From the sequence record OR352937.1: 50,922 bases of DNA. One strand, written 5' to 3'. Shown here piece after piece: positions 13,968 through 36,831 of this stretch. This DNA is from Escherichia phage AV106. Position numbers and translations under genes: made by a program. The notes beneath the pieces are model-generated. The model worked only from the letters and a program-made list of their open reading frames with translations. It searched no databases and had not been told where the DNA came from. The number at the start of each line of letters is the position of its first letter. Within the stretch, counting starts at the first letter, position 1.

Positions 13968-14014
13968 GATGTTTACCTTTTTGTGCTATTTATCGGTGGA
14001 CTCATTATACAGGC

Positions 14015-16124: not shown

Positions 16125-16163
16125 TGTCTTTTCCTCTTGTTTAGTTGCAACCATTCTACAGCT

Positions 16164-16195
16164 ACAAAAAAACCCGCGCAAGGCGGGCTTTTGTC
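16164..16195 (-). terminator. Intrinsic terminator between the M-like and L-like genes
   Basis: Minus strand CCCGCC-ttgc-GCGGG followed by TTTTTTT. Confidence 0.6.
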
Positions 16196-19473: not shown

Positions 19474-20107
19474 TAGTTATTCTGCTTAGCAATCATTTCA
19501 AGCGCTTTCGCTTCCATGATCCTAACGTCCTGCAATGCCAGTTCTTCATCTTCTATTTTATAGATTTTAAACAACATAGGCAAAACATTATAGTCAAGAC
19601 CATAAGCGCCAGCGCCTGAACTTCTCCACTGAGTGAGCATTGATGTAAAAACATTCCAAGCCTTCACCATTTCAGCGTCGCCAATTATCGTTTCAGGTTC
19701 CTCGTCTTCATAGTCTGAAAGACTTAAACCAACCGATCGCAATTGTTCCTCTGTTGGCGGCTTCTGATATAACAGATAGACCGCCCTTTTTAGTTTTTTG
19801 CGCGGTGTCCGGCGAGAGCCTTGATGTAAGTTGCTGTCAGGTTGTACGCTGCTGAAGGATAATACTGAACCAGTTTTCGCGCATTTTCTTCGTTAAATTC
19901 TTCTTCAAGGTTCCATCCTGACGCGATCTTGGTAATGAACTCGCTGTCGTTCATTTCTCCCTGGTTGGCATACATATCCTGAACTTCTTTACTGGAAAGG
20001 TGGCGTACAGTGAAAATGATCGTTGCATCTTCACCGTTAGGCATGGTGAAGGTGACTGGAAGTTTGAAGTCTGGAAGTTGACCAAGAACGAAATTAAATT
20101 TAGCCAT
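19473..20107 (-). CDS. Tail assembly chaperone G-T fusion made by programmed -1 frameshift
   Basis: Slippery A_AAA_AAC on the minus strand at about 19799..19793, ending just before the G stop codon; the -1 frame then reads K-L-K-R-A-V-Y-L-L-Y-Q-K-P-P-T-E-E-Q-L-R-S-V-G-L-S-L-S-D-Y and continues through ORF 19473..19742. Confidence 0.6.
19790..20107 (-). CDS. Tail assembly chaperone (lambda G-like)
   Basis: 105 aa; RBS CCAATCAGGAGA; ends in a slippery heptamer directly before its stop codon. Confidence 0.6.
   Translation of the reverse strand: MAKFNFVLGQLPDFKLPVTFTMPNGEDATIIFTVRHLSSKEVQDMYANQGEMNDSEFITKIASGWNLEEEFNEENARKLVQYYPSAAYNLTATYIKALAGHRAKN
19793..19799 (-). other. Programmed -1 ribosomal frameshift slippery site (A_AAA_AAC)
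   Basis: Canonical X_XXY_YYZ heptamer at the 3' end of the G-like ORF, in the position where tailed-phage G/GT frameshifts occur. Confidence 0.6.
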
Positions 20108-20189
20108 GATATTTCTCCTGATTGGTTAATGGCACTTTTTGTTAAAAGAGAATAGTGCAAACTTGATACGATGATTTTACAGAAATGAA

Positions 20190-20212
20190 TAAGGGGGCGC
20201 AAGCCCCCTTGT
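20190..20212 (-). terminator. Terminator-like hairpin after the major tail gene
   Basis: GGGGGC-gcaa-GCCCCC, with a U-rich tract on the minus strand. Confidence 0.5.
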
Positions 20213-20221
20213 GGATATGAT

Positions 20222-20890
20222 TTAGGCACCAGGTGATGCCAGAGCGGATGAAACGAAAGTGAAATCACCCTTCAGGGATACGGCGAGTTGTACCGTTTCC
20301 ATTTCGTTCACTTGCGTAGATGGAATGTCGTTAAAAGACAAGATGCCAGCCCACATGCGCATCTCGTTCGCTTTTGGAACATACATCCGAACCGCAGTTA
20401 CCTGACCAGAAGAATCCAGCTTACGCAGAATAGGGTAGATCGGGTTATCAAATTCGTGCGCGAATGTGTAAGTTAGCGAGATCGCAGATTTAAACGTTGG
20501 GATCTGCTGTTCTTTATCGTCGGACAAGCACTGATAAGTATAATACTGCTGCTCGCCGCCGTCCTGACCAATCTCCTGTACGCAAGGAATCTCAGTCCAG
20601 CCAGTAATTTTTGCAAAGCTCATCGTACCGCCAGCCGGGAAAACAAGAGTATCAGAAGTGTCAATCCCAGCGAGAGTGATGCTTGTTTCCTGAGCGTTAG
20701 TAACAATTAGCACTCGACTGACCATCTTTGCCCAGGTTGACTGAGTTACAATAACGTAATCGCCTTTTACTAAGTCGCCCTTAGATGCAACTGTAGCAAC
20801 AGGATTTTCTGCGTTAGTAATAGCGGTTGCCTCAATCTCTTCTCCGCGAGAGGTTTCCACGAAAATTTGCGCGCCATTTGGTAAGTGCAT
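20222..20890 (-). CDS. Major tail protein
   Basis: Start moved to internal ATG (MHLPNGAQ); position upstream of the chaperone pair; terminator downstream. Confidence 0.5.
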   Translation of the reverse strand: MHLPNGAQIFVETSRGEEIEATAITNAENPVATVASKGDLVKGDYVIVTQSTWAKMVSRVLIVTNAQETSITLAGIDTSDTLVFPAGGTMSFAKITGWTEIPCVQEIGQDGGEQQYYTYQCLSDDKEQQIPTFKSAISLTYTFAHEFDNPIYPILRKLDSSGQVTAVRMYVPKANEMRMWAGILSFNDIPSTQVNEMETVQLAVSLKGDFTFVSSALASPGA

Positions 20891-20892
20891 AA

Positions 20893-21291
20893 TTAAGTCT
20901 CCTTTGTGTCTACTCGTACTGTAAAGCGAACCGGAATCATCCACCCGCTTTCATGTTTAACAATTTGATGCACGATTGCACCCTCGAAAATATAACCAAC
21001 GTTAAGCATTTTACCATCTTTGAAAAAATCAGCAATCTCTTTTGCTTTCAATCTTGCTTCGTCAACTCCGGATCCTGGAGGGAACACTACTCCGATCTGA
21101 ACGATTGCGATGTAAGATTTACACTTTCTGTCAATGGATAGATAAAGCGTATCACCTTCAATGTAGTTGAACCTAAGCCACATCCCGCCATCCTTCGGCG
21201 GTATGAAATTTCTGTTTTCCATGTAGTGAGGAAAGTCTCTGTACTTTGATAGAAAAGCGGCTCGCGCCGCCGCTGATAACTCATAGTGCAT
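20893..21291 (-). CDS. Tail completion / tail terminator-like protein
   Basis: 132 aa; position between the head-tail joining genes and the major tail gene. Confidence 0.35.
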   Translation of the reverse strand: MHYELSAAARAAFLSKYRDFPHYMENRNFIPPKDGGMWLRFNYIEGDTLYLSIDRKCKSYIAIVQIGVVFPPGSGVDEARLKAKEIADFFKDGKMLNVGYIFEGAIVHQIVKHESGWMIPVRFTVRVDTKET

Positions 21292-21724
21292 TTTGCTGTC
21301 TCCTTGCCTGCTTGATTGCGTCAGCCATATATGATCTCAGCCTTAATGCCACAAGGCCGACAACGCCGCTCGGTGCTTGCTGTGAATGACCGTACTCAAG
21401 AGCGTTTGCATAAATCAACATGTTTGAAAAGTGAACGGATGTTATCGCGCCGCCACGGCTGAACATGCCATAAGTTTTTGCCTGTTCCTCACCCCTGACG
21501 ACACCGCCAGTTTTATCGTATCGGTTTAATGCGTGGTTAGGGATTTCGTTAAAAGTTATCTGCCAGTTACCCTTGAATCGACCTGTATCAACAGGGGATC
21601 GGCTAACAAGAGCGTCGTGAACATCCCTTACGAATATTTCAATGGCATGTTCTAACGTGCTTTCAGCGACCTTAATCCACGCATCAATCTCGCCTTGAAA
21701 TCTACGAATCTGATAATTAGCCAC
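21281..21724 (-). CDS. Head-tail joining / neck protein
   Basis: Start moved to a GTG that overlaps the upstream stop codon (GTGGCTAA), RBS GGAGGG; the longer track ORF would overlap the upstream gene by about 100 nt. Confidence 0.35.
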   Translation of the reverse strand: MANYQIRRFQGEIDAWIKVAESTLEHAIEIFVRDVHDALVSRSPVDTGRFKGNWQITFNEIPNHALNRYDKTGGVVRGEEQAKTYGMFSRGGAITSVHFSNMLIYANALEYGHSQQAPSGVVGLVALRLRSYMADAIKQARRQQNAL

Positions 21725-22097
21725 CGACTGATACCCTCCGTAATACTGGACGATAGGCGACTGGTTCCAGTGACGCCTGAACCGGGCGAGCATCAACGAC
21801 AACATGACGAATGCCATCAATCTCTATATAGTCACCTTCGTTTATTTCATGATCATTATTGAAGATCCCCAAAATATCTGAGGCGCGGATAGTTTCCCCG
21901 TCAATCTCACGCGCGTTCGGTCTTCTCGTCGCGCCGGATATTGGAATAACCTGTTCCATCTGTTGGATCTCGAATCCGTTTTCATCATATCCGTATTCAC
22001 CTTGCTTTATCAGGTTCATAGGTCTTGACGGATCTGTGAAGAAAGCCACGCCTTTGCGAGCCATTCTTTCAATCTGTGAGTAGTTCATTAGTGGCAT
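21717..22097 (-). CDS. Head closure / head-tail adaptor-like protein
   Basis: 126 aa; position in the connector module. Confidence 0.35.
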   Translation of the reverse strand: MPLMNYSQIERMARKGVAFFTDPSRPMNLIKQGEYGYDENGFEIQQMEQVIPISGATRRPNAREIDGETIRASDILGIFNNDHEINEGDYIEIDGIRHVVVDARPVQASLEPVAYRPVLRRVSVGG

Positions 22098-22498
22098 CCT
22101 CCACGGAGTCCTGTCATTAATGCGAATCTACCACGGCGTCGCGCTTTAAGCTGTTCGAACATCTTACCCCACGGCGTCGAAAGCATCATGTTTCCTGACT
22201 GGTTCTTCGTAACCTCTCCGAAAGTCTGGCTAAATTCACCGCTCAGTGAGAATGACGTAACTCGTCGTGAGTACGATTCCAGATCCTCATCTTCACCTTT
22301 TAGCGCCCCGTCAAGGAAAGCAAGGTGCAATGCATAAAGAGCGAGCGCTTTGACGTATGCGTCTTTAAAGGTCTTCTGGCATACAAAAAGCTCAGCCATT
22401 TCTACCCACGCATAAAGCGTTTCGTCTGGAACCTTACGAAGTGCCGGAACCAGCTTTCGCATTTGCTCAACAACTGCAATTAAAGTTTCTTGATTCAT
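22088..22498 (-). CDS. Head-tail connector-like protein
   Basis: 136 aa; preceded by a terminator-like hairpin and RBS. Confidence 0.35.
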   Translation of the reverse strand: MNQETLIAVVEQMRKLVPALRKVPDETLYAWVEMAELFVCQKTFKDAYVKALALYALHLAFLDGALKGEDEDLESYSRRVTSFSLSGEFSQTFGEVTKNQSGNMMLSTPWGKMFEQLKARRRGRFALMTGLRGGCH

Positions 22499-22510
22499 AA
22501 TTTACCACCA

Positions 22511-22540
22511 TAAAAAAAGGCGCTACATGAGCGCCTTGAT
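22511..22540 (-). terminator. Attenuator hairpin
   Basis: Minus strand AAGGCGCTC-atg-TAGCGCCTT followed by TTTTTTTATGG. Confidence 0.5.
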
Positions 22541-22542
22541 GA

Positions 22543-22830
22543 TTAATATTCGCCGCCGTCTTCAAGCTCTTTTACGCTCATTTTATCCCACGGATCTGGC
22601 TTCGTGATCTTTGCCATTTCAGCGCGGATTTTGCGGTTGGTTGCACTGTCGTCTTTAACTTCGATTTCTTCGCGAGCAATTAAGCAACGCAGGCCAGGTA
22701 AATCAAGAACGGAAGCCGGAAGCGTGACCTCTTCATCTGGAAGAACTTTAGCAAAGGAACCATCTTCAAGACGGAACATCTGAAGAGCTACACCAACGTT
22801 TACGATAACAACAGTTTTTTCTTTAGCCAT
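22543..22830 (-). CDS. Hypothetical small structural protein
   Basis: 95 aa; RBS GGAGAAATC; between the major capsid gene and the connector genes. Confidence 0.35.
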   Translation of the reverse strand: MAKEKTVVIVNVGVALQMFRLEDGSFAKVLPDEEVTLPASVLDLPGLRCLIAREEIEVKDDSATNRKIRAEMAKITKPDPWDKMSVKELEDGGEY

Positions 22831-22841
22831 TTTGATTTCTC

Positions 22842-22873
22842 CAATAAAAAAGGGACTAACTAAGTTAGCCCCT
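22842..22873 (-). terminator. Terminator after the major capsid gene
   Basis: Minus strand GGGGCTAACT-tag-TTAGTCCC followed by TTTTTTATT. Confidence 0.6.
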
Positions 22874-22879
22874 ATAATA

Positions 22880-23839
22880 TTACACGCCAGTGATTAAGAC
22901 AATAGTCATCGGGCGATAAATTGTAAGACCAGTACACTTAGAGGTGCAAGGCACTTTAAAGTGCAAGTCTTTCGGTTGTGCTGGCAGCATGTTAAATGCT
23001 TCCGGGATCTCGATGGACATGTTCATCGGATTCTTTTCGTACACCAGTACGCCTTTGGTGCCTGCGCCGTCAATATCCTCAAGCTCTGCGATAGAGTCGA
23101 TTTCGATACCTGAGTTCTGAGACTTGAAATAGTCCAGATAAGACATGGTAGTCTCAGGCATACGAATCGCCAGCACCTTACGCATGGACGGCGGGATCAG
23201 AATGTTGGTAGCTCGGTGCTGGCCTCGAGTAATCGTCTCGATGGTTTCGATCGCCTGAGTCAATTCCGCTTCAGCCGTTTCCGGTTTCTGAGTTGCGCCA
23301 TCCATCCACTTACCGGAGGTAATTTTGGTGATGTTCGGATGATTGAACACGGACACAATCTTGTGCGGCGCGGAACCTTTGAACACCAGGCGGTTAACAA
23401 GCTGATCATGAGCCAACTGGCACGCACTTGCCTTACGGGTTGACAGTGGGCGACCAGTTGCCTGACCTGCTTTGATTTCGTCGATTGAGATCAGATACGC
23501 GTTACCCAGACGGAACACCTTGCCAAACTCAGAAGTACCCAGGGCGTCAACCAGCGGAAGATCGTCGGTGTAGTCTGCGATAATCTGAGCCGTACCAACC
23601 TTGTCAAAGGTCATGTATTCAAACGTCTTATCAGTCGGAGAAAGATCGGTTGTAACCGGGAATACGCGTAGAGCGGAGCCGACCGGGTAGTCTTCTTCAT
23701 AGGACTGGCTTTTAATGCGGTGTAGTTCCTGAGCGGTCCAGATACCCATCGTTGCGGCTGCATCCTGTTTTACGCCAGCCTGGATCAGATACATTTCAAC
23801 ATTGCTCTTATCTGCTTCGTCAAATTTTTTAGTAGTCAT
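22880..23839 (-). CDS. Major capsid protein
   Basis: 319 aa; RBS AAGGAGAAG; position after scaffold and decoration genes; flanked by attenuator hairpins as expected for the most highly expressed structural gene. Confidence 0.75.
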   Translation of the reverse strand: MTTKKFDEADKSNVEMYLIQAGVKQDAAATMGIWTAQELHRIKSQSYEEDYPVGSALRVFPVTTDLSPTDKTFEYMTFDKVGTAQIIADYTDDLPLVDALGTSEFGKVFRLGNAYLISIDEIKAGQATGRPLSTRKASACQLAHDQLVNRLVFKGSAPHKIVSVFNHPNITKITSGKWMDGATQKPETAEAELTQAIETIETITRGQHRATNILIPPSMRKVLAIRMPETTMSYLDYFKSQNSGIEIDSIAELEDIDGAGTKGVLVYEKNPMNMSIEIPEAFNMLPAQPKDLHFKVPCTSKCTGLTIYRPMTIVLITGV

Positions 23840-23930
23840 GATTACTTCTCCTTAGTTAATAAAAAAGCCGTGATTATGTTCACAGCTTCAATAATAGCAC
23901 TTTTTGTTAAAGCGTCAAAGTGTTTTTGTG

Positions 23931-24947
23931 TTATGGGGCAGGTTCAGCAGCGATGGTTAACTCAGCCTGACCACTAACACCAGAGCCATCCGCAGCAGTC
24001 CAGATAACATTAACTGTACCAGCAGCAATCGTGGTTACGAGTCCGGTAGCAGCGTCTACAGTCGCCAAAGCGGTATCAGACACAGACCAGGAGCCAGATT
24101 TGTTTGTAGCATTCTCTGGAGTCACAGCCACACTAGCTTGTACGGTTTCGCCAGCAGTTGCAGAATCTGCAGCAAGGCTTACAGCAGCGCCAGTAACATT
24201 AACGACAGCTTTTTCGAATCGATATGCGATTGTCTCACTAGTCTCACTTGCATCATTTGCAGTCCACGTCACATTAACGTTTCCAAACACATCACCACCG
24301 ACAGGGGTTAGCTTTCCAGTCTGATCAATAGTTGCAATGTTCGTAGCATCAACAGACCATGCGCCAGTTTTATCAGTTGCGTCATCTGGTTTTACGGTAA
24401 CGCTGCATTGTACGGGTGCATTGTTTGGCTGTGGGCTTGTCTTGTTAGTAGTGATTGTTGCAGAATCAACAAGAACAACCGGAGGCGGTGGGGGTGGAGT
24501 AATGAAAGCATTTTGTTTCACCTGAACCTCAATAATGTGCCCGTCTTCGTGCTTAACAAAGCCACCCGCGAAGGTCCAGCCTACAGATCCAGCGCCACCA
24601 GTGACAACCCCACCAGCTCCAAACTCTAACTTTGAGAACAAATCAGGAGCTTCATCAAGAGAAGTAAGCGCCCAGGCGCGACCGTGAGAAACGACGTTAC
24701 ACACTTCACCATCAAGGATTTTACCGCTCAGGTGTTCGTATTGGGAACGAAAAGCGATACCGTAAGGTGTTCCACCATCAGCAAGCGCCGTTACAACTTT
24801 CATTCCGTCAACGATCCCGATAACTTGGACTGCCGCGCCGAACTCAATATCACCTTGAGCCACACAAGCGCCATCAATGTTATAGGTTGAAGTATCAGAA
24901 AGATTACCCGGACACGCGGGGCGCAAGAACAAATTTTCGTAAGCCAT
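23931..24947 (-). CDS. Capsid decoration-like protein with two C-terminal Ig-like (BIG2-type) domains
   Basis: 338 aa; N-terminal 150 aa paralogous to ORF 25009..25488; PPPPPP linker; two tandem repeats of about 60 aa (SVTVKPDDATDKTGAWSV... and SVAVTPENATNKSGSWSV...) that look like bacterial Ig-like domains. Confidence 0.55.
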   Translation of the reverse strand: MAYENLFLRPACPGNLSDTSTYNIDGACVAQGDIEFGAAVQVIGIVDGMKVVTALADGGTPYGIAFRSQYEHLSGKILDGEVCNVVSHGRAWALTSLDEAPDLFSKLEFGAGGVVTGGAGSVGWTFAGGFVKHEDGHIIEVQVKQNAFITPPPPPPVVLVDSATITTNKTSPQPNNAPVQCSVTVKPDDATDKTGAWSVDATNIATIDQTGKLTPVGGDVFGNVNVTWTANDASETSETIAYRFEKAVVNVTGAAVSLAADSATAGETVQASVAVTPENATNKSGSWSVSDTALATVDAATGLVTTIAAGTVNVIWTAADGSGVSGQAELTIAAEPAP

Positions 24948-24957
24948 AATAATTTCT

Positions 24958-24996
24958 CCATAAAAAAAAGGGACTATCCAAAAGGATAGCCCCTAT
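24958..24996 (-). terminator. Terminator after decoration gene 25009..25488
   Basis: Minus strand GGGGCTATCC-tttt-GGATAGTCCC followed by TTTTTTTT. Confidence 0.6.
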
Positions 24997-25008
24997 ATTA
25001 AATGCTAA

Positions 25009-25488
25009 TTACAGTTGATGCAACTGAACTTCTACAAGCTGAATATCTTTATATTTGGCAAAGCCGCCAGCGTAAGTCCAGTTAGTAGTGATTGTGCCAT
25101 CAGATTTTTCCTGACCATCAACATCAAGTTTAACGGCAGTGCCGAAAATTGGTGTGTCGGTGGATTTTGAAAGCATCCAAACTCGACCGGAGGTCATTAC
25201 GTTGATTGCGCCGCCTTCTTCATAAACCATCTGGCCTTGAGAATTAACAGTCTGCCAGTGAGAGCGAATCGCTACACCGTAGGGGTATTTTTCTGCTTCC
25301 ATACCCTTAATGAGTTTATGACCATCAGCCGCTTGCGCTGCGACAACCTGCACGGCAGATCCAACAAAAACAGAACCCCCCTCACTAACAACGCAAGCGC
25401 CGTCAACGTTGTATTTAGAGGTATCCGAAATCATGCCCGGGAGGGCGATCGCCATGTCGCGCTGATAAGATGCGTTAATCTGTGCCAT
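25009..25488 (-). CDS. Capsid decoration-like protein (short paralog)
   Basis: 159 aa; shares SDTSxYNxDGACV and downstream blocks with the N-terminus of ORF 23931..24947. Confidence 0.5.
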   Translation of the reverse strand: MAQINASYQRDMAIALPGMISDTSKYNVDGACVVSEGGSVFVGSAVQVVAAQAADGHKLIKGMEAEKYPYGVAIRSHWQTVNSQGQMVYEEGGAINVMTSGRVWMLSKSTDTPIFGTAVKLDVDGQEKSDGTITTNWTYAGGFAKYKDIQLVEVQLHQL

Positions 25489-25499
25489 GATATTTCTCC

Positions 25500-26612
25500 T
25501 TACATTACTTTGCTTAAACGTGAATTTGGCGTAACAGGAGCGGCGTCGTTTTTCTCTTCCGGCTTACCGCCTTCGATAGAGTCGCCTTTTACTGCTTTAC
25601 GCTGAATAGCCATGATATCAGAATCTTTAGCAACATCAAACATAGCGTCGATATATGCGTCTGATTTTTCACTAACATCTTTATCAAGCATGGCTTTAAC
25701 TACGGCAATCTTGACGTCTTTGATATCAAGACCATCATGTTTGACGCCTGCGGTTTCTGCTACTGCGGTAACTTCTGCGCGTGCGGCGGCATCGGCTTTT
25801 TGCTTCTCTACCTCTGCCTTCACAAGTTCCGGCAGAGAGTCAACCTTAACCTTCAGCGCATCGCGCTCAGCTTCGAAGCCATCAGCTTTCCCCTGAATGG
25901 TGGCAATCTGCGCGGTTAATTTTTCGATATGGTTCGCAACGTCTTCGGTTACTTCCACATCAACTGAGTCGATCTTAATTTTTTTCATTTGCTTGTCCTC
26001 GTTAGTTAATTGAACGTTATTATCATACGGGAACTCCTGTTCGGCATCAAGATTTAATTTAGCAATTCCCGCACGACCTTTAAAAACTAGGGCAATATGG
26101 TTGACCTTGATATTAGTTTGTACCGCGTCGAATTTCACCCAACCTTCAGGTGGCGCTTCGTCCTGTTTCATATCCTCTTCGAAGATATATTCTCCAGTCT
26201 CATTTGAACCCCAGCCGGGCTTATCAATATCTACCGACGTATACCCTACAGATAATTCCCCGGCCTCCTTCGCTTTAGCTTTGCTGATCGCGTAGTCGCT
26301 GTAAATACTCAAAGGAACTTCAACGCCAACCCCTGAAGCAATACCAGCGCCAGCACACGATCCGACAACAACGTCCTTAGCATTTTGGGGTGTCACCGTT
26401 ACGTGACCGACTGTTATCGGCTTGCCTGCAAAACTTTGCAAGGAATCTTGCTTGAAAACTTCGGACGCCGGACGGAACTCAACTCGATCGCCGTGAGGCG
26501 TTTTGTAAACCTGAGCGCCGATTCGCGCCACGATTGGGCGGTCAACTAAAAAACCGTTATCATCAAAGTGAGCCTTGATTTTTACTGAATCGAATCTTTG
26601 CTTTGCCTTCAT
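25500..26612 (-). CDS. Prohead scaffolding protein (possible scaffold/protease fusion)
   Basis: Start moved to ATG behind RBS AGGAGA; C-terminal half is Lys/Glu/Ala-rich coiled coil; position between the head morphogenesis and capsid genes. Confidence 0.45.
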   Translation of the reverse strand: MKAKQRFDSVKIKAHFDDNGFLVDRPIVARIGAQVYKTPHGDRVEFRPASEVFKQDSLQSFAGKPITVGHVTVTPQNAKDVVVGSCAGAGIASGVGVEVPLSIYSDYAISKAKAKEAGELSVGYTSVDIDKPGWGSNETGEYIFEEDMKQDEAPPEGWVKFDAVQTNIKVNHIALVFKGRAGIAKLNLDAEQEFPYDNNVQLTNEDKQMKKIKIDSVDVEVTEDVANHIEKLTAQIATIQGKADGFEAERDALKVKVDSLPELVKAEVEKQKADAAARAEVTAVAETAGVKHDGLDIKDVKIAVVKAMLDKDVSEKSDAYIDAMFDVAKDSDIMAIQRKAVKGDSIEGGKPEEKNDAAPVTPNSRLSKVM

Positions 26613-26614
26613 TT

Positions 26615-27376
26615 TTAATCTCCTGTAGAAAAGTCTGGAACAGCCCAACAGCGGCAGTTGTATTCTTCACCCGGGAATACGTGATCGGAATCTACCGCTA
26701 TGCGCTTACCTTCCCATCTTACATGTTTTTCACGTTCGCGTAAATCCATCACCCCGCGCCAGAAATAGTAAGATACACCAGCGTCTTTTATGCGCTGCCG
26801 CATCAGTCTACTGTTCCAGGTTCCGACAATTCCCGACGCTCTATTTTTGGCCCAGCTACGGTAAATACCAAATCGCTCCTTAGCAAGTTCAACAACAAAA
26901 TCCTTGCTTTTACCCTGACCGGATGCCGCACGAAGTTTATCAGTGAAATCAGTAACCATGTTGGCGGCAAATTTCCTGATAGAAGTAGTCACCTGCGATC
27001 GCCACAGATTATATTGTCCTGAGTACCAGCTTTCGGCAGCGGTAGGACCAATCAGGGCAAGTAGCATTACGGCTTGATTCTTCTTACCTCCAGCATTTCT
27101 AGCTATTCGCAACCACTGCTTAGAGTTGAATTTATAGATAGTTAGCGCGACGGATGATAGAGATCCGATAATCGGCGCGATTAGAGATTCGACGTAATCA
27201 AGCAATGACCTTTCTGTCTGATCTATCTCTTCGTCAGTAGCGTCAAATTTCATCGGCTTTAATTCGTCACGCATTTTTTCAGTTAGTTTGGCTGCAACAT
27301 CCTGTAGGGAGCGCGACATTGCGCGCTCGCTCATTTCAGGATAGCGCCACTGTGTTGCAACGCCATTAATTTTCAT
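26615..27376 (-). CDS. Head morphogenesis protein (SPP1 gp7 / Mu F-like)
   Basis: 253 aa; C-terminal PGEEYNCRCWAVPDFS matches the conserved motif of this family; directly follows the portal gene. Confidence 0.7.
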   Translation of the reverse strand: MKINGVATQWRYPEMSERAMSRSLQDVAAKLTEKMRDELKPMKFDATDEEIDQTERSLLDYVESLIAPIIGSLSSVALTIYKFNSKQWLRIARNAGGKKNQAVMLLALIGPTAAESWYSGQYNLWRSQVTTSIRKFAANMVTDFTDKLRAASGQGKSKDFVVELAKERFGIYRSWAKNRASGIVGTWNSRLMRQRIKDAGVSYYFWRGVMDLREREKHVRWEGKRIAVDSDHVFPGEEYNCRCWAVPDFSTGD

Positions 27377-28649
27377 CTTCTAACTTCTCCCCTAATCCCG
27401 GCTCCGGTTCGGTTGTTTCTTCCGGTTCGCGAATGTTGATGTTATTACCATCCTTGAGTTTGAACTCAGGGGCAATGGATCGCAACGTGTCGCGAGCTTC
27501 TTCCAGATCGATGATTTGCTCAGTGATAGCTTTCGTAACCGACTCAACGTTATTCTTCGTGATCTCTGATTCCTCTTTCTTACTCGGAACAGACAAAGGC
27601 TCAAACTCGATCGACCACTCTTCCTCATCAACAATGAACGGCAACAAGAACTCAAGAAGCGGCCTGTAATCTTCCTCTCGTTTGCGATCGACTAGCTTAT
27701 AGAAAGTCTCAAGCGCTGTGTTTTGGCTCGCTGATACGCCGCCTACGTTCTTATTCTTGATGATAATCTCATGAATCCCGGATAGGGAGACGATGCGGTC
27801 CATCTTGCTTGATAAGAACTCAGGAACTCCGCTGATATCAGAGTTGAGAACGTCATACTCCTCAGTCTCAGCATCGATACCGATCGCACGGCCCACGCCG
27901 GAGTTATCATCAACCTGAGCAAGTCGCAGGCGCGCGGCATACTGAGCGTCATCATCATCACACATTTCGGCAAGACCTTTGACCTTCCATACAGCCTGTT
28001 GCTTACGTCTCAAGATCTGAGTAGCCAGAGATTCACAGTAATCATAGTCACAGATTGCATCAATCAGTGACTTATTCAATACCGAAGCTCCCCATCCTTG
28101 ATTCTGCTTTCTTGCCTGTTGCGTTACTCGTTCACCATCAGCAATAAAGACTCTTGAGTGATGAATCAGGTACGGCTGCATATTGTCGCCAGGGGATACC
28201 TTGTAAATTTCAGGCTCACCATAGCGAGGAGATCTTGCATTGGTGACTCGCTTTTCAACAGTGATAGCAAATCGATCATAAACTCTGACGCCTTCAAGTT
28301 TAGCTCCAGACTTTGCCTGACTGGTTAACATCCGGTTGTCTTTGATGATTGCCACCATCGCCGCGCCACCGTAAAGACGTGCCCAACAAAGAAGATCCAC
28401 CAGACTTGAATCAAGTTTGTAGCTATCCCATAAAGACTTGAACTCTTTTTCATCCTTAACGCCTGACATTTTAAAACCAGCCGTCACCATCTCTTCCGGG
28501 ATAACATCCACAATTCGCTTCGCGGTTGCGTTGTCGTTGTAGAAAGAACCGACGTGATATGATGCATCAGACATAAAGAATGGCTTAGGCGATCCGTCCG
28601 CGCCGCCGTTAAAGATATCGTTATATCCATCATGCTTAACAATTTTCAT
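27366..28649 (-). CDS. Portal protein
   Basis: Start moved to ATG behind RBS GGAGGAAAC; about 427 aa; immediately downstream of the large terminase gene. Confidence 0.7.
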   Translation of the reverse strand: MKIVKHDGYNDIFNGGADGSPKPFFMSDASYHVGSFYNDNATAKRIVDVIPEEMVTAGFKMSGVKDEKEFKSLWDSYKLDSSLVDLLCWARLYGGAAMVAIIKDNRMLTSQAKSGAKLEGVRVYDRFAITVEKRVTNARSPRYGEPEIYKVSPGDNMQPYLIHHSRVFIADGERVTQQARKQNQGWGASVLNKSLIDAICDYDYCESLATQILRRKQQAVWKVKGLAEMCDDDDAQYAARLRLAQVDDNSGVGRAIGIDAETEEYDVLNSDISGVPEFLSSKMDRIVSLSGIHEIIIKNKNVGGVSASQNTALETFYKLVDRKREEDYRPLLEFLLPFIVDEEEWSIEFEPLSVPSKKEESEITKNNVESVTKAITEQIIDLEEARDTLRSIAPEFKLKDGNNINIREPEETTEPEPGLGEKLEDEN

Positions 28650-28661
28650 GTTTCCTCCAAT

Positions 28662-28687
28662 AAAAAGGGCCGTCAATTGACAGCCCT
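28662..28687 (-). terminator. Attenuator between the large terminase and portal genes
   Basis: Palindrome GGGCTGTCAATTGACGGCCC followed by TTTTTATT, then RBS. Confidence 0.5.
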
Positions 28688-28703
28688 GATTATATCTCAT
28701 TTA

Positions 28704-30272
28704 TTACCGCTTAACCATCCCGGCTAGTCGCTTCATTCGCTCGATAGGATCGTCAATTGTCAGTAGTTCAATGTTAGCCGCATCCATGAAGTTATCGACA
28801 ATATCATCATGCGGGTGAGTGTCATCGTAAGTGAAGGCGCTATGTTCTGCGATGATTTCCGCAAGCATAGGGTGCTCTTCTGGAAGAACCACGCGACCAG
28901 CCTTAATGACTGGCTGAGCATCCATCGCTCGGGTAACTTTATCCTTGTTACGCTGCAATGGAGTGATAGAGATCGGAGTCTTCTTCCTGAGATTCTGGAT
29001 TAAGCCCGTACCGCTTGCTTTGTCTTCCACGTAGATTTTACGAAGTACCCCCATTGATTTATTGTGCCTCCATGCCTGATTGACGAAAGCTGTAAATTGC
29101 CTCTCCATATCCGGCGCTTCCCACTTTCCGCGAATGCCGTCGATAAAGTAAACCTTATCATTCTTCTTGCCCCACAAACAAAATACCGTGTAGTCGTTTA
29201 GCTCACCTGTCTTCTGAGCGGTATCGGCAGTGATGAATCGGTAATCATATTTACCCGGATCTGGCTCGTCAGCGTCAAGACTGCTGCCGTAATAAGTCCA
29301 CCACTCTGAGTTAAACACGGAGCCACCCAGCGCGATCGGTTTCTGCTGATACTGAGAATCAAAGGTATACTGATCTGCTTCTCGTAACGCTAACAGGTCG
29401 TGAACGCTTTCCTTGCTGGGCCAAAAAGAGTAATGCTTAACGCCATCCAATTCTACATACTCAGACGATAAAACATCACGCTCAAAGTAAGGCTGCAACC
29501 AATCAGGAAGTGTCTTTCCGTATTCTTCCGTCACCAGCGCCGGTATTGAGATTTGGTCAAACTCAATACCCATCCCGCCATTCATCATGAACCATGTTGA
29601 ATCCTGAGCATGTAGTCGTTGCTGAATTGCAATAATAGGCGTCTCGTTATGCATGCGACGGGATCGAATGGTGTTTTTCAATAGCATGTGTGTACGCTCA
29701 CGCTTAACCTTTGAGAACATATCATCAGGCTTGTCGATATCGTCGAGCATTACCATACCTGAGAATCCCGGCGTCATGTAGCCACCACGCGAACCAGTAA
29801 TACGACCGCCAGCCGCTGCGGATATCAACTCAAACCAAACCTTTCCATCTTCGTTAAGAACCTGCATCTCCTCGTCTTTCGATGTGCCGAACTTGCAAGG
29901 CCATAGCTCTTGAAATTCGTTGCTACTGATAATCTCACGGACGCGCTTACTGTTACGCTTAACCAAGCTGTCAGCAAACGACACGTTAAGGTTTCGCACC
30001 TTCTTACACTTGAGCATTGCGTAAACAGGAAGGTGAATTGAGAACACTTCAGTTTTACCGGAACCTGGCGTGACGTTAAAGATTGTATTCCCTCGTCGGC
30101 CTGCAATAATTTCCTCCACTTCGTGACATAGGTAAAGGTGATGCCAGTTAGGCTGGAACTGCTGAGCCTGCATAAGCTGGAACCAGATCCGAATCATTTT
30201 TTCGAAATTGGCCTCGCTCATTTTCTTGATCGCTAACTTCTGCGTTGCGTTAAGGTCTTCCCATTGAATCAT
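28704..30272 (-). CDS. Terminase large subunit
   Basis: Start moved to second ATG behind RBS GGGAGA; Walker A-like TPGSGKT; conserved nuclease-domain acidic residues in the C-terminal half. Confidence 0.85.
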   Translation of the reverse strand: MIQWEDLNATQKLAIKKMSEANFEKMIRIWFQLMQAQQFQPNWHHLYLCHEVEEIIAGRRGNTIFNVTPGSGKTEVFSIHLPVYAMLKCKKVRNLNVSFADSLVKRNSKRVREIISSNEFQELWPCKFGTSKDEEMQVLNEDGKVWFELISAAAGGRITGSRGGYMTPGFSGMVMLDDIDKPDDMFSKVKRERTHMLLKNTIRSRRMHNETPIIAIQQRLHAQDSTWFMMNGGMGIEFDQISIPALVTEEYGKTLPDWLQPYFERDVLSSEYVELDGVKHYSFWPSKESVHDLLALREADQYTFDSQYQQKPIALGGSVFNSEWWTYYGSSLDADEPDPGKYDYRFITADTAQKTGELNDYTVFCLWGKKNDKVYFIDGIRGKWEAPDMERQFTAFVNQAWRHNKSMGVLRKIYVEDKASGTGLIQNLRKKTPISITPLQRNKDKVTRAMDAQPVIKAGRVVLPEEHPMLAEIIAEHSAFTYDDTHPHDDIVDNFMDAANIELLTIDDPIERMKRLAGMVKR

Positions 30273-30311
30273 GATTAAGTCTCCCATGCGGGCGCTCGCG
30301 CGCCCCTAACG

Positions 30312-30836
30312 TTAAAGCATATCAAGAATGCTGTTTACCGCCTCTTTCATCGCATCCTCAGTAGTGGCGACTACTGTCGATGCGGAAGCTGACGAGTTTT
30401 CGATATTGATTGAGGTTGGCTTATCGATTCCGAGATCCTTACCGATAAAGGAGGCATTAATAACACCGTTGGCGGCAAGCTGGAATTTTTGCTCATTGAT
30501 TACCGATTCCACAAACTCCATAACCTCGCTGTATTCTTCCTCTCGCTTCCACTTAATGATCGCGGCCTCGCTTGCACCGATGAATAGTCGGTATCCGGTC
30601 CAGGTGAAGACGCGCGGCTTATGAACTAGCGATTCATAAACGCCACCCTGAAAGCTGGCTGATTCTGACGCCTTGATTGCGTTGTCCTCAGCCCATTCGA
30701 AATACTTAACTGACAGATCGAATAGTTGCTCAGGCGTCATTGCCCGGTTTTTAGCAAGAACAGTGCCGAACTTTTTCTTGTATAGCTCTTTGAAATTGCC
30801 TCCCTGGACTACGGGGGCGTTCTTAGGTTCACTCAT
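30312..30836 (-). CDS. Terminase small subunit
   Basis: Start moved to ATG behind RBS AAAGAGGATGG; directly upstream of the large terminase gene; preceded by a dyad motif and a terminator. Confidence 0.5.
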   Translation of the reverse strand: MSEPKNAPVVQGGNFKELYKKKFGTVLAKNRAMTPEQLFDLSVKYFEWAEDNAIKASESASFQGGVYESLVHKPRVFTWTGYRLFIGASEAAIIKWKREEEYSEVMEFVESVINEQKFQLAANGVINASFIGKDLGIDKPTSINIENSSASASTVVATTEDAMKEAVNSILDML

Positions 30837-30888
30837 AAATCCATCCTCTTTGTTTAACATTTAGTGCTATTTTACCATATTGCAGGCA

Positions 30889-32075: not shown

Positions 32076-32419
32076 TATTTATCACCTTTGAATGAAAAAC
32101 CTACACCTAAAACCTGATTGCAAACTGATTCCATGTATCGCAACTGGTATTGAGCAACATTTGAAGGACTTAATTCATCGGCAAATAAACTCTCAACATT
32201 GATTTCTTTTTTATGCTTGCGCTTCCATGCCTTGATGATATTTGGCAGGATGCGCTCGCTCTTCCAGGCTGCAAACTCAGCTTGATTCGTTGAAACAGGA
32301 GTAAGTTGCTTTTCGATCTGGTTGAGCAACTCGGCAGTTGCTCCTTTTACGTGCAATTGGTCGCCGATCGCATCAAGGATTTCACGAGCTTGCTTCTCTG
32401 ATAGGTTAATCGTAATCAT
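32075..32419 (-). CDS. Hypothetical protein
   Basis: 114 aa; RBS AAGAGGA. Confidence 0.4.
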   Translation of the reverse strand: MITINLSEKQAREILDAIGDQLHVKGATAELLNQIEKQLTPVSTNQAEFAAWKSERILPNIIKAWKRKHKKEINVESLFADELSPSNVAQYQLRYMESVCNQVLGVGFSFKGDK

Positions 32420-32657: not shown

Positions 32658-32703
32658 ACTATATCAAATCACCCCACCGACGTTTTAGCAATTCGCGCTA
32701 TTT
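32658..32703 (-). promoter_or_regulatory. Dyad-motif promoter
   Basis: AATAGCGCGAATTGCTAAAAC, 22 bp, TATAGT in a hairpin loop; upstream of ORF 32425..32625. Confidence 0.55.
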
Positions 32704-33270
32704 GTTGATGACCGTAGCGGCTATGTGCTGAGCGGTAATTTCTGGATGACCTTCGACAGAGAAGAAATCACACTCCTGATAACCATTAACCCCGATCATA
32801 TCTTCCAGGTAAATATAATCACGACTGTCGTTGTCAAAGTTGCAGCCTTTGCGGTGGATTCGGCATAGCTTGACCTGGATATCACCTTCAATCATCTGCA
32901 ATACCTCATCTTTGAATCCACCATCAGTAAATACTGACAGAGAATATGACTCTTTGACCTTGCTTTCCGCTCGCATACCGAAGAATCGATTTCCGAACTG
33001 TGGCTTGATGACTTCCTCGCTAATCCAGATCATAAACTGGCGAGGGCTTTTACCGTTCAGGATTGACGCTGGCTCTTCTTTGTAACGACGATCCTCATAC
33101 AAGAACATGAAATACTCGTAGTTAGTCTCACCCAGGATTGCCCGAGCAATCTCAAACATTGGTTCTTTGAAGCTGCGCAAAGCTACATGATCGTAAGTGT
33201 CAGCCAGGATGCATCCGATAGTGTCCTTGCCTGCTCCAGGGGCGCCGTTTAAAATGATAGCTGTTTTCAT
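32698..33270 (-). CDS. Deoxynucleoside monophosphate kinase (T4 gp1-like)
   Basis: 190 aa; P-loop NGAPGAGKDT; ILNGKSPRQFMIWISEE resembles T4 dNMP kinase YLNGKSPIKGVFVFDDE. Confidence 0.65.
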   Translation of the reverse strand: MKTAIILNGAPGAGKDTIGCILADTYDHVALRSFKEPMFEIARAILGETNYEYFMFLYEDRRYKEEPASILNGKSPRQFMIWISEEVIKPQFGNRFFGMRAESKVKESYSLSVFTDGGFKDEVLQMIEGDIQVKLCRIHRKGCNFDNDSRDYIYLEDMIGVNGYQECDFFSVEGHPEITAQHIAATVINK

Positions 33271-33271
33271 A

Positions 33272-33382
33272 TCAGTATCTCCCTAAAAATAATTTTGCCA
33301 TATTGATAATAGTGTGATTGATGATTAGCAGGATGATAACCGTCAATGCCGGATGTGCTGCAATAAATTCGTATAGGTTCAT
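33272..33382 (-). CDS. Hypothetical small hydrophobic peptide (36 aa, absent from the ORF track)
   Basis: ATGA overlap with the HAD gene stop; translates MNLYEFIAAHPALTVIILLIINHTIINMAKLFLGRY; its stop abuts the kinase start. Confidence 0.3.
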   Translation of the reverse strand: MNLYEFIAAHPALTVIILLIINHTIINMAKLFLGRY

Positions 33383-33912
33383 TTCTCTACCCCGTGCGAT
33401 TTTAAATGATCGTGAACGTTGTCGCCATAGTCAACTACAGCATATGTGGTTATTCCAAGCGACCGGAATAATGGAATAATTTGCGGTGAATCATCCCAAG
33501 CCGCGAGGATGTTTTCAATACCGATCGCTCGCACAGCTTCCTCTTTCATCACTGTGTCTTTCCGGTTGTCTGTGTGCGGTCGCATGACTAAGTAATCATA
33601 TCGCGCACCGTGATGCTTAAGCCACAACTCAGATGCGTAACGAACCTCATCACTTCGCCCGGTTAAAACTATTACGTGATACCCAGCGGCAAACATAGAG
33701 TTCATCACCTCAATCGTGCTCTGGATGGGGTTATCAAATATTGCGGCTCGATTAAACTCAGACCAGCTTTCAGTCAAGTGCAAATCCTTTGTTGGCAACA
33801 GGTGAAGGCGCTTTGATCCATCACTCAGTGTTCCGTCAAAGTCAAAGATTGCGACGCGGCGCGGACCGAGAAACAGGTTGATAGTTTGACCCCAAATTGT
33901 AATTTTATCCAT
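33379..33912 (-). CDS. HAD-superfamily phosphatase (nucleotidase-like)
   Basis: 177 aa; motif I FDFDGT near the N-terminus and downstream acidic motifs typical of HAD hydrolases. Confidence 0.6.
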   Translation of the reverse strand: MDKITIWGQTINLFLGPRRVAIFDFDGTLSDGSKRLHLLPTKDLHLTESWSEFNRAAIFDNPIQSTIEVMNSMFAAGYHVIVLTGRSDEVRYASELWLKHHGARYDYLVMRPHTDNRKDTVMKEEAVRAIGIENILAAWDDSPQIIPLFRSLGITTYAVVDYGDNVHDHLKSHGVEK

Positions 33913-33952
33913 TATTTATTCCTATGATTGGTTGCTTAACTCAACGAAGGGC

Positions 33953-33998
33953 ATTCTATCAAATGCCCTTGAGCAAGTTTTAGCAATTAGTGCTATTA
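33953..33998 (-). promoter_or_regulatory. Dyad-motif promoter
   Basis: AATAGCACTAATTGCTAAAAC, 22 bp, TAGAAT (preceded by TGa) in the loop of AAGGGCAT...ATGCCCTT; upstream of the HAD gene. Confidence 0.55.
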
Positions 33999-34442
33999 CC
34001 AGTAATCTACCTCGTAGTCAGCCCAGGCGTCAAAATCACTTTGGCAGAATGTGCCGCTATAATTTTCCATCATTTCATCGATCAGGAAGTAGCAGGACTC
34101 ACCGTTACGATAGAAGTATGAATCAGCAACGTTACGCGCCCAGCGCCCAGCATCCTTCTTGCTCATCTTCCAGTGCTTCATGGCGATTTTCTTAAATGCG
34201 CGAACAATACGCTTGCGGATCTTGACATTCTTGTACACAGCGTTGCATCCGTAAGCCATATATTCATTGTTGCCAAGATTCTGCATGATGTACGGATTAA
34301 CGTCTTTTGACGTAATCATCAGATCGCCATCGCCGCGACGCGCATCATAAATGCTTGCTGTCATGTAGTGGCCTTTGAACATTCCAATGCCGTGCAGAGT
34401 GTGTTCATCGTTAGGCGTTTCAATGCAGATTAAGTGTTTCAT
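33996..34442 (-). CDS. Hypothetical protein
   Basis: Start moved to ATG (MKHLICIE) behind RBS GAGGAAG; the track's N-terminal extension reads through the promoter hairpin. Confidence 0.45.
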   Translation of the reverse strand: MKHLICIETPNDEHTLHGIGMFKGHYMTASIYDARRGDGDLMITSKDVNPYIMQNLGNNEYMAYGCNAVYKNVKIRKRIVRAFKKIAMKHWKMSKKDAGRWARNVADSYFYRNGESCYFLIDEMMENYSGTFCQSDFDAWADYEVDYW

Positions 34443-34472
34443 GATCGCTTCCTCGTTTGTTGGTGTAGGGGA

Positions 34473-34518
34473 ATCATAGCGCATCCCCCTTGATAGGTTT
34501 TAGCAATTCGTGCTATTC
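34473..34518 (-). promoter_or_regulatory. Dyad-motif promoter
   Basis: AATAGCACGAATTGCTAAAAC, 22 bp, TATGAT in the loop of GGGGGA...TCCCC. Confidence 0.55.
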
Positions 34519-34718
34519 GTTTTAATAGTGATGCAAAAATAATTTTTTAAGCACGTTACCACGCGCGCTGAATCGACTTGTGGGAGCCTCAAAATTTCGT
34601 GGACCAATTGCACTGCCGACACCTCAGATTTGTAGTAGTGTGCGATTCTGGAGGTGTTTGGGCGCATTCCTTCCACCGCGTCACGCGCTGCATCTTCTGC
34701 TGTCATGATAGTAGCCAT
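34500..34718 (-). CDS. Hypothetical protein
   Basis: 72 aa. Confidence 0.35.
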   Translation of the reverse strand: MATIMTAEDAARDAVEGMRPNTSRIAHYYKSEVSAVQLVHEILRLPQVDSARVVTCLKNYFCITIKTNSTNC

Positions 34719-34821
34719 AAAACACCCTTAAGAGATAATGTCAGGACTAGGAGGCAGAATAGCAACTCCTGAAATGATGGCGGCTCGTTATTCCAGTTAT
34801 AAAAGTCTGGCATAGTGTTTT

Positions 34822-34860
34822 CTCCAAAAGAAAGGGGAACAGCTCAGAGTCGATTCCCCG
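34822..34860 (-). terminator. Terminator after ORF 34867..35505
   Basis: Minus strand GGGGAA...TTCCCC followed by TTTCTTTT. Confidence 0.45.
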
Positions 34861-34866
34861 TTAAAA

Positions 34867-35505
34867 TTACATGATGAACATCAGCGAAATCGAAGCTACC
34901 AGGAGAACAAGAGCAATAGCTAGGCCAGACAAGTCTGCTTTCTCTTCAAACTTCATTGCTGGCTTGCGGTCAACATTAATAGGCTTGACGTTGCTAATCT
35001 TGCTGGTGTTGATCTTGCCGTTGACGCGGAAAGTGCGATTGCGCTTCTTACCGAAAGTTGCGAACTTAGTGCCGCCACTGTTCCAACGAAGGCCTTCGCC
35101 ATTGTGAGTTACGGTTGCAATGCGGTGTCGGCCCGTGTCGTCGGTCAGCGCTACAGTGTGCTTTGCGTGCTCAGTAGGCACGTCGTAGATTTTGCCAACG
35201 GTAAATTTTTTGGTGTTATCACTGATACATTCGAATTTCATAAATCTTACCTCTTTATTATGCAGTTGGTTGATTGCTTCGATTACGTCGTTAAATTTAA
35301 CACCATCCACGATTCGATGGAAGATATATTTTGAGCTACCGCCATAAGGCAGGAAAATTTCCTGATATTCGTGACGCCGTACAACGTTCACGTTGCAACC
35401 GTTCTCATCAGTAATGATGAAGCTGTCATCATTTACGCGAACACCTTTGTAAGTTTTTCCCCACTTAAAACCAGATCCGCTACTTGATACGCACTCAAAT
35501 TTCAT
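34867..35505 (-). CDS. Membrane-anchored protein with internally duplicated domain
   Basis: 212 aa; two tandem domains starting MKFECVSSSGSGFKWGKTY and MKFECISDNTKKFTVGKIY; C-terminal transmembrane helix LSGLAIALVLLVASISLMFIM; terminator downstream. Confidence 0.45.
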   Translation of the reverse strand: MKFECVSSSGSGFKWGKTYKGVRVNDDSFIITDENGCNVNVVRRHEYQEIFLPYGGSSKYIFHRIVDGVKFNDVIEAINQLHNKEVRFMKFECISDNTKKFTVGKIYDVPTEHAKHTVALTDDTGRHRIATVTHNGEGLRWNSGGTKFATFGKKRNRTFRVNGKINTSKISNVKPINVDRKPAMKFEEKADLSGLAIALVLLVASISLMFIM

Positions 35506-36057: not shown

Positions 36058-36107
36058 TTGGTGTCATAACTGATTCCTCTGATTGGTTGCCATGCTTCAA
36101 TAAGGCC

Positions 36108-36153
36108 ACTATATCAAATGGCCTTGCGGAAGGTTTAGCAATTCGTGCTATCG
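36108..36153 (-). promoter_or_regulatory. Dyad-motif promoter
   Basis: GATAGCACGAATTGCTAAACC, 22 bp, TATAGT (preceded by TGa) in a hairpin, then leader AACCAATCAGAGGAATCAGTT-ATG. Confidence 0.55.
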
Positions 36154-36803: not shown

Positions 36804-36831
36804 AATGATTTCCTCTTAGTGGTTGATATGG

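Follow-up and report, generated by a model that had tools for sequence, protein, structure and literature searches.

A marbox-like repeat at early promoters and within late promoters of the T1-like coliphage AV106

Phage T1 is a classic phage, yet to our knowledge its transcriptional control has never been worked out. Here we describe a repeat of 17 nucleotides (nt), TAGCAC-N5-TGYTAAA, in the sequence of Escherichia phage AV106 (OR352937.1), which was analyzed over its full length of 50,922 nt, hereafter referred to as the window. The sequence belongs to a T1-like coliphage (Tunavirus), is about 95% identical to T1 and close relatives over an 11-kb stretch, and is a circular permutation relative to the T1 map. 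The minus strand carries its late genes at about 10.5-30.9 kb, running from terS, which encodes the small terminase subunit, to the gene for the J-like fibre. An initial annotation had placed copies of a symmetric dyad in front of four of them, namely terS, the major capsid gene, the G tail chaperone gene and J.

The repeat and its resemblance to the marbox

All four late-region copies were recovered by a pattern search of the window, only a few bases away from the positions first assigned and at the distances from the start codons originally given. The copies initially placed at 20127 and 23892 are indeed inverted relative to the late genes and start at 20130 and 23895, respectively (Table 1). 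The pattern TAGCACTWWWTGTTAAA has 25 matches in the window at three mismatches or fewer, against 1.03 expected. A weight matrix was trained on 17 early copies, with scores in bits and the shuffled window as null. The terS, capsid, G and J copies score 20.1, 29.1, 19.2 and 11.1 bits, respectively, and no position of the shuffled window exceeds 9.0 bits. The late copies are far beyond chance.

Table 1. Coordinates of the repeat copies and of the associated elements in the window
Feature	Position	Strand	Description
terS copy TAGCACTAAATGTTAAA	30853-30869	-	Same direction as late genes; 16 nt 5' of the terS ATG (30836)
Extended -10 TGgTAAAAT, terS promoter	30869-30877	-	Final T shared with the repeat as its first base; start predicted near 30862
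Capsid copy TAGCACTTTTTGTTAAA	23895-23911	+	Inverted relative to late genes; within the spacer of the sense capsid promoter
Sense capsid promoter	23891-23918	-	-35 TTGACG (23918-23913), 16-nt spacer, TGc, -10 TATTAT (23896-23891)
Terminator-like hairpin and T-run	23864-23889	-	Between the capsid promoter and the capsid ribosome-binding site; annotated terminator in T1
G-chaperone copy TGGCACTTTTTGTTAAA	20130-20146	+	Inverted relative to late genes; 22 nt 5' of the G ATG (20107)
Antisense extended -10 TGaTACGAT	20164-20172	+	Hexamer exactly 20 nt 3' of the repeat; predicted start near 20179
Sense late promoter of the G/T chaperone and tape-measure genes	20174-20202	-	-35 TTGCGC (20202-20197), 17 nt, -10 TAAAAT (20179-20174)
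Major tail gene terminator	20191-20210	-	Loop provides the -35 of the sense G promoter
J copy TAGCACAAAAAGGTAAA	13972-13988	-	Degenerate; same direction as late genes; 17-mer at about +10 to +26 of the J promoter; overlaps the J ribosome-binding site
J terminator and promoter	14004-14040	-	Terminator 14040-14022; loop TTGCGC 17 nt 5' of a perfect -10 TATAAT (14009-14004)
Left early arm	32684-39228	-	Nine copies, TAnnnT 20 nt downstream of each
Right early arm	40476-44294	+	Seven copies, six with a -10 at 20-21 nt
pir/helicase control region	2471-2523	-	Repeat (2507-2523) upstream of the helicase promoter (TATTAT)

The element is oriented rather than a true dyad, because the opposite strand of the same sites scores poorly with the weight matrix. 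The apparent dyad TAGCA-N5-TGCTA is only partial, with the TAGCA/TGCTA symmetry seen in half of the copies. Orientation relative to transcription is constant in the window and in 67 of 70 related early sites. The symmetric dyad of the initial annotation consequently gives way to an oriented element of apparent marbox type.

Indeed, the sequence suggests a marbox-type site in which an A-box GCAC and a B-box YAAA are separated by 7 bp, that is, a putative monomer site for MarA, SoxS or Rob (RamA). Marboxes are asymmetric and are bound by AraC-family activators that act as monomers, namely MarA, SoxS, Rob and RamA. The older marbox consensus, AYnGCACnnWnnRYYAAAY (also written with a final n), has 19 matches in the window at one mismatch or fewer, against 1.11 expected. 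A second consensus, GCAnnWWnTGnnAAA, derived from chromatin immunoprecipitation (PMC12052159), has 18 exact matches against 0.94 expected. The marbox matches take in all four late copies; the terS copy has no mismatch to either consensus and the J copy has one to the older consensus. Moreover, the copy at 40475 is identical at 16 of 18 positions to the mar site of the MarA co-crystal, and the terS copy at 15 of 18 to the micF site of the Rob co-crystal.

Two other identities of the repeat were rejected. Compared with the sigma-54 promoter consensus, TGGCAC-N5-TTGCW, the spacing of TAGCAC-N3-TTGC is 2 bp short and AG replaces GG in all but one copy; the conserved sigma-70 -10 element located 20 nt downstream also rules it out. 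TTGCTA or TTGTTA within the repeat, read as a -35 element, lies 22 nt from the -10. In the re-annotated T1 record AY216660, four PePPER-predicted promoters are labelled "RpoD-independent" (15062-15089, 30319-30346, 32109-32138 and 36483-36511), the first of which is the capsid copy and the last the pir/helicase copy. This label probably stems from a superficial likeness to sigma-54 promoters (TGGCAC...TTGC), although the spacing does not fit.

The repeat itself has already been published. A 21-nt direct repeat, aaATAGCACnnnTTGnTAAAA, was reported for phage TLS, with "similar repeats" in T1, Rtp and Rogue1, and its function was left open, stoperators, enhancer sites or UP elements being suggested (PMC11447400). 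The repeat described here is the same element: DR7 of TLS, inverted and beside the terminator before the capsid gene, is the counterpart of the copy at 23895, and DR8, before the J-like gene, that of the copy at 13972. The marbox match, the constant distance to the -10 and the embedding in late promoters are unreported in the TLS paper. In the searchable literature, a scope that leaves aside the T1 genome paper of 2004 and the paper on Rtp, no link of the repeat to marboxes, to a fixed -10 distance or to late promoters was found.

Position of the repeat at early and late promoters

At early promoters the box occupies a fixed position. In 14 of the 17 early promoters of the matrix set, a [T/C]AnnnT hexamer lies exactly 20 nt 3' of the 17-mer, the remaining three having it at 21 nt, and in related phages the hexamer is 20 nt away in 67 of 70 distinct early sites. 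The early box is forward, overlaps the -35 region and has its centre at about -42 relative to the -10 hexamer, in line with the position from which the initial annotation had early copies act. The early -10 hexamers often carry a TGn extension. A class II marbox promoter is defined by a forward marbox overlapping the -35, and the RamA site at micF, at about -41, reads CACT-7X-AAA. In E. coli MG1655, the micF marbox is followed after exactly 20 nt by TAGAAT and then by the annotated micF 5' end. Class II geometry (forward, about -41, fixed -10 distance) is shared by the early promoters and by one plus-strand promoter at 20130-20172, in the late region.

For comparison, 63 related loci were collected, with capsid protein identities of 57-100%. 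Presence of the late copies was counted in 61 loci for capsid, 56 for G, 51 for terS and 51 for J, and conservation of geometry among distinct sequences (25 capsid, 24 G and 70 early sites). The capsid copy is present in 59 loci, the G copy in 30, the terS copy in 15 and the J copy in 42. Relative to the late genes, none of the terS, J, capsid and G copies has class II geometry. That late copies occupy operator-like positions unlike the early ones was part of the initial annotation, and these non-activating geometries are conserved across the whole range of capsid identities.

At the capsid gene, the inverted box occupies the whole spacer of a strong sense sigma-70 promoter, TTGACG-16-TGcTATTAT, with a predicted start near 23884. 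In an unbiased promoter scan this was the best intergenic match on the late strand, with a joint top score of 10/12. TTGnnn-16/17-TAnnnT surrounds the inverted box in 25 of 25 distinct relatives, with TGn in 24 of them, and such a -35/-10 pattern is found in none of 76 early sites on the opposite strand, which served as control. Across a subtype change, from TTT in T1-like phages to GAA in the group with 57% identity, the capsid box keeps the marbox consensus. The dyad had first been taken to overlap the -35 region of a CATAAT hexamer and to be enclosed with it in a hairpin. CATAAT does sit in the hairpin loop (stem 23889-23864), but the repeat lies outside the hairpin, and neither the loop sequence nor CATAAT is conserved among relatives. 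CATAAT was also rejected as a sigma-dependent pause element for Q-type antitermination: besides the unconserved loop, the 57%-identity group has no terminator there. Relative to the sense promoter, the inverted copy is centred at about -19 or -20 and not in the class I position (reverse, -56 to -85); that the inverted copies activate the capsid or G genes in class I fashion was discarded on account of the wrong distances. On the plus strand, the hexamer at class II distance (TATGGG at 23932) is without a final T and conserved in 1 of 25 relatives, contrary to an earlier suggestion that this copy could drive an antisense transcript.

The same suggestion fares better at the G gene, where the inverted copy is located downstream of the sense start. 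The plus-strand hexamer, initially considered weak, is TACGAT (20167-20172), TG-extended, and TAnnnT lies at exactly this class II distance of 20 nt in 24 of 24 distinct relatives. It takes the form of nine different hexamers, constant only at the key -12, -11 and -7 positions, and is preceded by TG in 21 of 24. Judged by its sequence, the G copy is a genuine class II promoter directed backwards. The -10 of the sense promoter, which has a predicted start near 20167, is one base from the antisense -10. It reads TA[A/G/C]AAT in 24 of 24 and is accompanied by TTGnnn-17 in 17 of 18 distinct relatives; the sense promoter is also conserved in genera without the box. The divergent start sites are about 12 bp apart, so that both polymerases need the same melted DNA.

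In the terS promoter, the box extends from about -7 to +10. As originally read, TGgTAAAAT lies directly upstream of the repeat; additionally, it overlaps it. TGnTAAAAT (n = g, a or c) is kept in relatives with the terS box, and other genera keep the terS -10 after the upstream terminator but not the box. The J copy extends from about +8 to +27 of the J promoter, overlapping the ribosome-binding site, and scores 11-25 in the 42 loci. The J promoter has a predicted start near 13997, and its TATAAT/TACAAT is conserved in relatives. For the tail-tip gene L, only a weak match (9.7) is found, upstream of its terminator. At the terL-portal junction, 20 of 56 loci have a forward box 6-8 nt upstream of TATAAT/TACAAT, and in the loci compared a box at terS and a box at portal never occur in one genome. 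In the window this junction (28650-28700, minus strand) retains TATAAT and the terminator without the box. We consider the anatomical and comparative statements of this work highly probable.

Some further observations concern the same late promoters. In the other genera with a terL-portal box (L018, L039 and others; -4.3 to -4.8 kb from the capsid gene), the box is perfect and contains the terL stop codon, and the order is box, TATAAT/TACAAT, terminator, portal ribosome-binding site. Composite terminator-promoters are found on the minus strand before the G, J and L genes (20174-20210, 14004-14040 and 16150-16190, respectively). In each of these, the loop TTGCGC is the -35 and is followed by 17 nt comprising the 3' arm and T-run, then by TAAAAT, TATAAT or TAGAAT. 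The composite at G is conserved across genera.

Individual early sites differ in detail. Copy 40476-40492 (plus strand, score 31.4) has no recognizable -10 at 20-21 nt, unlike its neighbours. The dam promoter copy spans the ends of the window (50919-50922 and 1-13, minus strand; score 32.1) and was not seen by linear scans; CATTAT lies 20 nt downstream, and the box contains the TAG that ends the upstream resolvase gene (AAATAGCAC). The highest score (34.7) belongs to the copy of the T1 orf65 promoter, located at -42. In the pir/helicase control region, a TATAAT on the opposite strand points to pir, which places the repeat downstream of the start site and upstream of the ribosome-binding site of this gene, a layout equal to that of the G-chaperone site.

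Other elements accompany the early boxes. Copy 2974-2990 (plus strand) overlaps the end of pir, and TAACAT (3011-3016), 20 nt on, lies in the loop of the pir terminator hairpin (about 2997-3028), forming an overlapping terminator/promoter module before the primase gene. In 16 of 18 early promoters (32684-44294 and 47909-50544), a GC-rich inverted repeat of variable sequence is located between box and start site (e.g., 36096-36133 and 43795-43832; mean z = -2.96 versus shuffles). It usually holds the -10 hexamer in its loop and may be a terminator or processing hairpin for read-through RNA of the upstream gene. Finally, a leader motif, AACCAATCAG(GAG), lies directly 5' of the ribosome-binding site in many early genes and in the G chaperone gene, at 20118-20127, 36079-36088, 40735-40744, 41963-41972, 43836-43845 and other positions. 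It has 32 matches at one mismatch or fewer against 3.6 expected; a variant, AACCAGTCAG, is frequent too, also within genes.

Proposed regulation and competing explanations

Taken at face value, these positions suggest early activation combined with late occlusion or promoter competition as the best reading. At the early promoters (about 20), the box in forward class II position, centred at about -42, would allow a bound factor to activate. In the late region the same box is laid over ordinary sigma-70 promoters, in places where a bound protein should be unable to activate by class I or class II rules. At the capsid promoter, since the box fills the 16-bp spacer, factor occupancy and RNA polymerase binding would exclude each other. 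At terS, a protein bound over about -7 to +10 of TGgTAAAAT would clash with RNA polymerase, as would one bound at about +8 to +27 of the J promoter TTGCGC-17-TATAAT, over the ribosome-binding site. At G, the antisense -10 abuts the sense -10 within a shared 12-bp melted region, so that factor-driven antisense initiation would compete with late sense initiation. The expected net effect is that early promoters are on and these late promoters damped while the factor is present. The balance would reverse once the factor is inactivated, has decayed or is titrated, for instance by replicating genomes with about 25 sites each.

Concerning the factor itself, searches of all six frames with hidden Markov models and phmmer revealed no MarA/SoxS/Rob/RamA-like open reading frame. 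There was also no AraC-family Pfam match among the T1 helix-turn-helix candidates, and a phage-encoded MarA-like protein was discarded on the strength of the Pfam and six-frame searches. As the phage has no recognizable MarA-family protein, a host protein would have to bind. Such a protein would be there at time zero, both for early firing and for holding the constitutive-looking late promoters. The T1 dam and orf65 promoters, both with the box in class II position, show activity in E. coli cells without phage, the dam promoter having been assayed in E. coli lysate. We consider the overall model, in which a MarA/SoxS/Rob-type factor binds, turning early promoters on and damping late ones, to be evenly poised between right and wrong. 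That T1-like phages (Drexlerviridae) wire their transcription to host MarA, SoxS, Rob or RamA, whose availability would set early expression and late release, is put forward more tentatively, as a possibility we would not yet favour; the early promoters (about 20) would then be class II marbox promoters of high affinity, and the same boxes would occlude the capsid and other late promoters. Availability could hinge on bile salts or stress, on titration by phage genomes, or on the decay of unstable MarA and SoxS after host shut-off.

Several points weigh against this reading. Sequence match, geometry and conservation are observed, and from these we infer the binding protein, the sign of regulation and its timing. 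The boxes are near-perfect and share extra conserved bases (AT before GCAC, and TTG), while natural marboxes are degenerate, which could mean another binding protein. In view of the TGn-extended -10 at many early promoters, an activator might be dispensable. In the absence of inducers Rob is generally regarded as mostly inactive, and unstressed cells contain little MarA or SoxS; the reliance of a virulent phage on these proteins is hypothetical. No rob, marA or soxS phenotype for T1, no other T1 link to Rob, MarA or SoxS, and no Drexlerviridae transcriptome or start-site data were found in the searchable literature. Moreover, the box cannot be the whole early/late switch, because the portal promoter has no site, the L match is weak, and the capsid copy alone is near-universal, the other three late copies being lineage-specific. 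Of the single-factor switch initially envisaged, what stands is a geometry fitting early activation and late restraint; full coverage of the late promoters does not. The last two points, namely the distribution of Pir homologues and the ability of a cI-type dimer likewise to activate from -42, lead to the main rival.

In this rival, a phage-encoded protein, likeliest the Cro/C2-like Pir, binds the repeat as a pseudo-dyad TAGCA-N5-TGCTA, activating from -42 like lambda cI at PRM and repressing from the late operators and at its own gene. Homologues of Pir are found in 824 phage records, family-wide and co-occurring with the motif, and Pir has a helix-turn-helix of the Cro/C2 type. T1 Pir activates the dam promoter, with its box at -42, and represses its own promoter, with the box between start site and ribosome-binding site; the symmetry present in half of the copies would suit such a dimer. 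On the other hand, the T1 orf65 promoter, despite having the best copy at -42, is reported not to depend on Pir, and hol and recE, which Pir does regulate, have plain sigma-70 promoters that lack a box. A better candidate for the Pir operator is CGTTTAC-N20-GTAAACG (2471-2504), whose arms flank the overlapping -10 elements of pir and the helicase gene. GTAAACG is found again at 8785-8791 (minus strand), at about +10 of the consensus recE promoter (TTGACT-16-TATAAT), and in T1 the pir and recE promoters are both Pir-repressed, pir also being repressed by Orf65. Furthermore, conservation of the box is asymmetric (left G invariant, right C/T; unlike flanks) and its orientation constant, and at time zero, when holding the late promoters matters most, a repressor made by the phage would not yet be present. 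On balance we regard binding by Pir as unlikely, if far from negligible.

Two related candidates were set aside. Orf65 activates its own promoter, which is marbox-type, and represses pir in T1, a phenotype that fits a binder role; as universal binder it was rejected, since it occurs in only 65 phage records, compared with 455 that have the late region. "Pseudomonas phage Motto" (ON843697, L067), considered as a natural test in a host that has no MarA or Rob, proved uninformative: its host label, Pseudomonas aeruginosa, is doubtful because of its 45% G+C. This member of the Tempevirinae has 19 box copies, most with a -10 at 20 nt, and also carries the inverted capsid copy.

It has also been proposed that the inverted late copies make antisense RNAs acting on the major tail and decoration/capsid messages. 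The G site provides a complete, conserved class II promoter directed into the 3' end of the major tail gene, and the hairpin that its transcript would meet has a poor T-run in that direction. The capsid site, by contrast, fails in the essential last T of its poorly conserved antisense hexamer, and in the 57%-identity group an antisense transcript would run into a bidirectional terminator within about 30 nt. The G module is absent from 26 of 56 loci while the sense promoter stays, and the window contains no known RNA family (no Rfam match) and no conserved antisense open reading frame. Regulation by such RNAs accordingly seems improbable to us.

The constant 20-nt distance to the -10 in 67 of 70 early sites points to a promoter-coupled activator site and argues against the view, derived from the TLS suggestions (PMC11447400), that the repeats are factor-independent UP-like enhancers or stoperator-like silencers and the late copies additional enhancers or stop signs. 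In keeping with this view, the promoter-proximal end of the sites is rich in A/T, and -10 elements follow downstream. Late copies in a spacer, at +1 or inverted leave no role for an UP element, however, and stoperators need an immunity repressor, which these virulent phages are without; the T1 annotation lists neither an immunity repressor nor an integrase. UP elements consist of A/T tracts at -40 to -60 and have no invariant GCAC, which counts further against them, and we consider this view very doubtful. Finally, the degenerate J copy (11.1) and the lineage-specific terS, portal and G copies could be taken for functionless fossils or chance matches, but with scores well above any shuffle, a capsid copy kept down to 57% identity and exact geometry retained while adjacent bases vary, this can hardly be credited.

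Relation to known systems and implications for T1-like phages

The activation and occlusion proposed here have counterparts in E. coli. The class II promoters micF, lpxC P2, lpxL P1 and rfaY P1 have the same consensus, in forward orientation and overlapping the -35, and micF shares the 20-nt distance from box to -10 with the phage early promoters. In contrast to the mar/sox/rob regulon, the phage is virulent, has about 25 near-perfect copies per 50 kb, putatively bound, and most of these have a GC-rich hairpin before the start site. At E. coli pbpG, a marbox in the promoter spacer mediates direct repression by MarA, SoxS and Rob. Like the phage capsid promoter, the pbpG promoter is a self-sufficient sigma-70 promoter with the -35 on one side of the marbox and the -10 on the other (the comparison covers box position); repression has been shown at pbpG and would be expected at the capsid promoter.

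Bidirectional and divergent promoters with shared or abutting -10 elements have been described genome-wide in bacteria. The G and pir/helicase sites likewise have two opposite-strand -10 elements in one melted region, with starts 12-18 bp apart; unlike those promoters, one arm here is coupled to a predicted activator site, potentially allowing factor-controlled choice of direction. Lambda cI bound at OR2 activates PRM from about -42 and represses PR. The proposed phage system resembles it in that one protein would activate from about -42 and repress from operator positions, and differs from it in that cI is a phage-made dimer with symmetric sites, whereas the site here has no such symmetry and the responses to Pir reported so far do not follow the presence of the box. 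L5-type stoperators (mycobacteriophage) are also asymmetric, are bound by the immunity repressor and silence transcription that passes across them; the phage boxes are instead coupled to a -10 at constant distance.

Relatives of T1 are common in gut samples and in phage-therapy collections against Klebsiella and E. coli. If the proposed reading is correct, infection by these phages would be coupled to the antibiotic- and stress-response regulators of the host. MarA, SoxS and Rob control efflux, porins and TolC, the latter being the receptor of phage TLS. Bile salts, salicylate, oxidants or mar mutations would then be predicted to alter early expression and timing of the phage. The arrangement would amount to a simple early/late switch without a phage-encoded polymerase, sigma factor or anti-sigma factor, built from compact parts such as class II promoters, terminator-promoter composites and a factor-steered bidirectional promoter.

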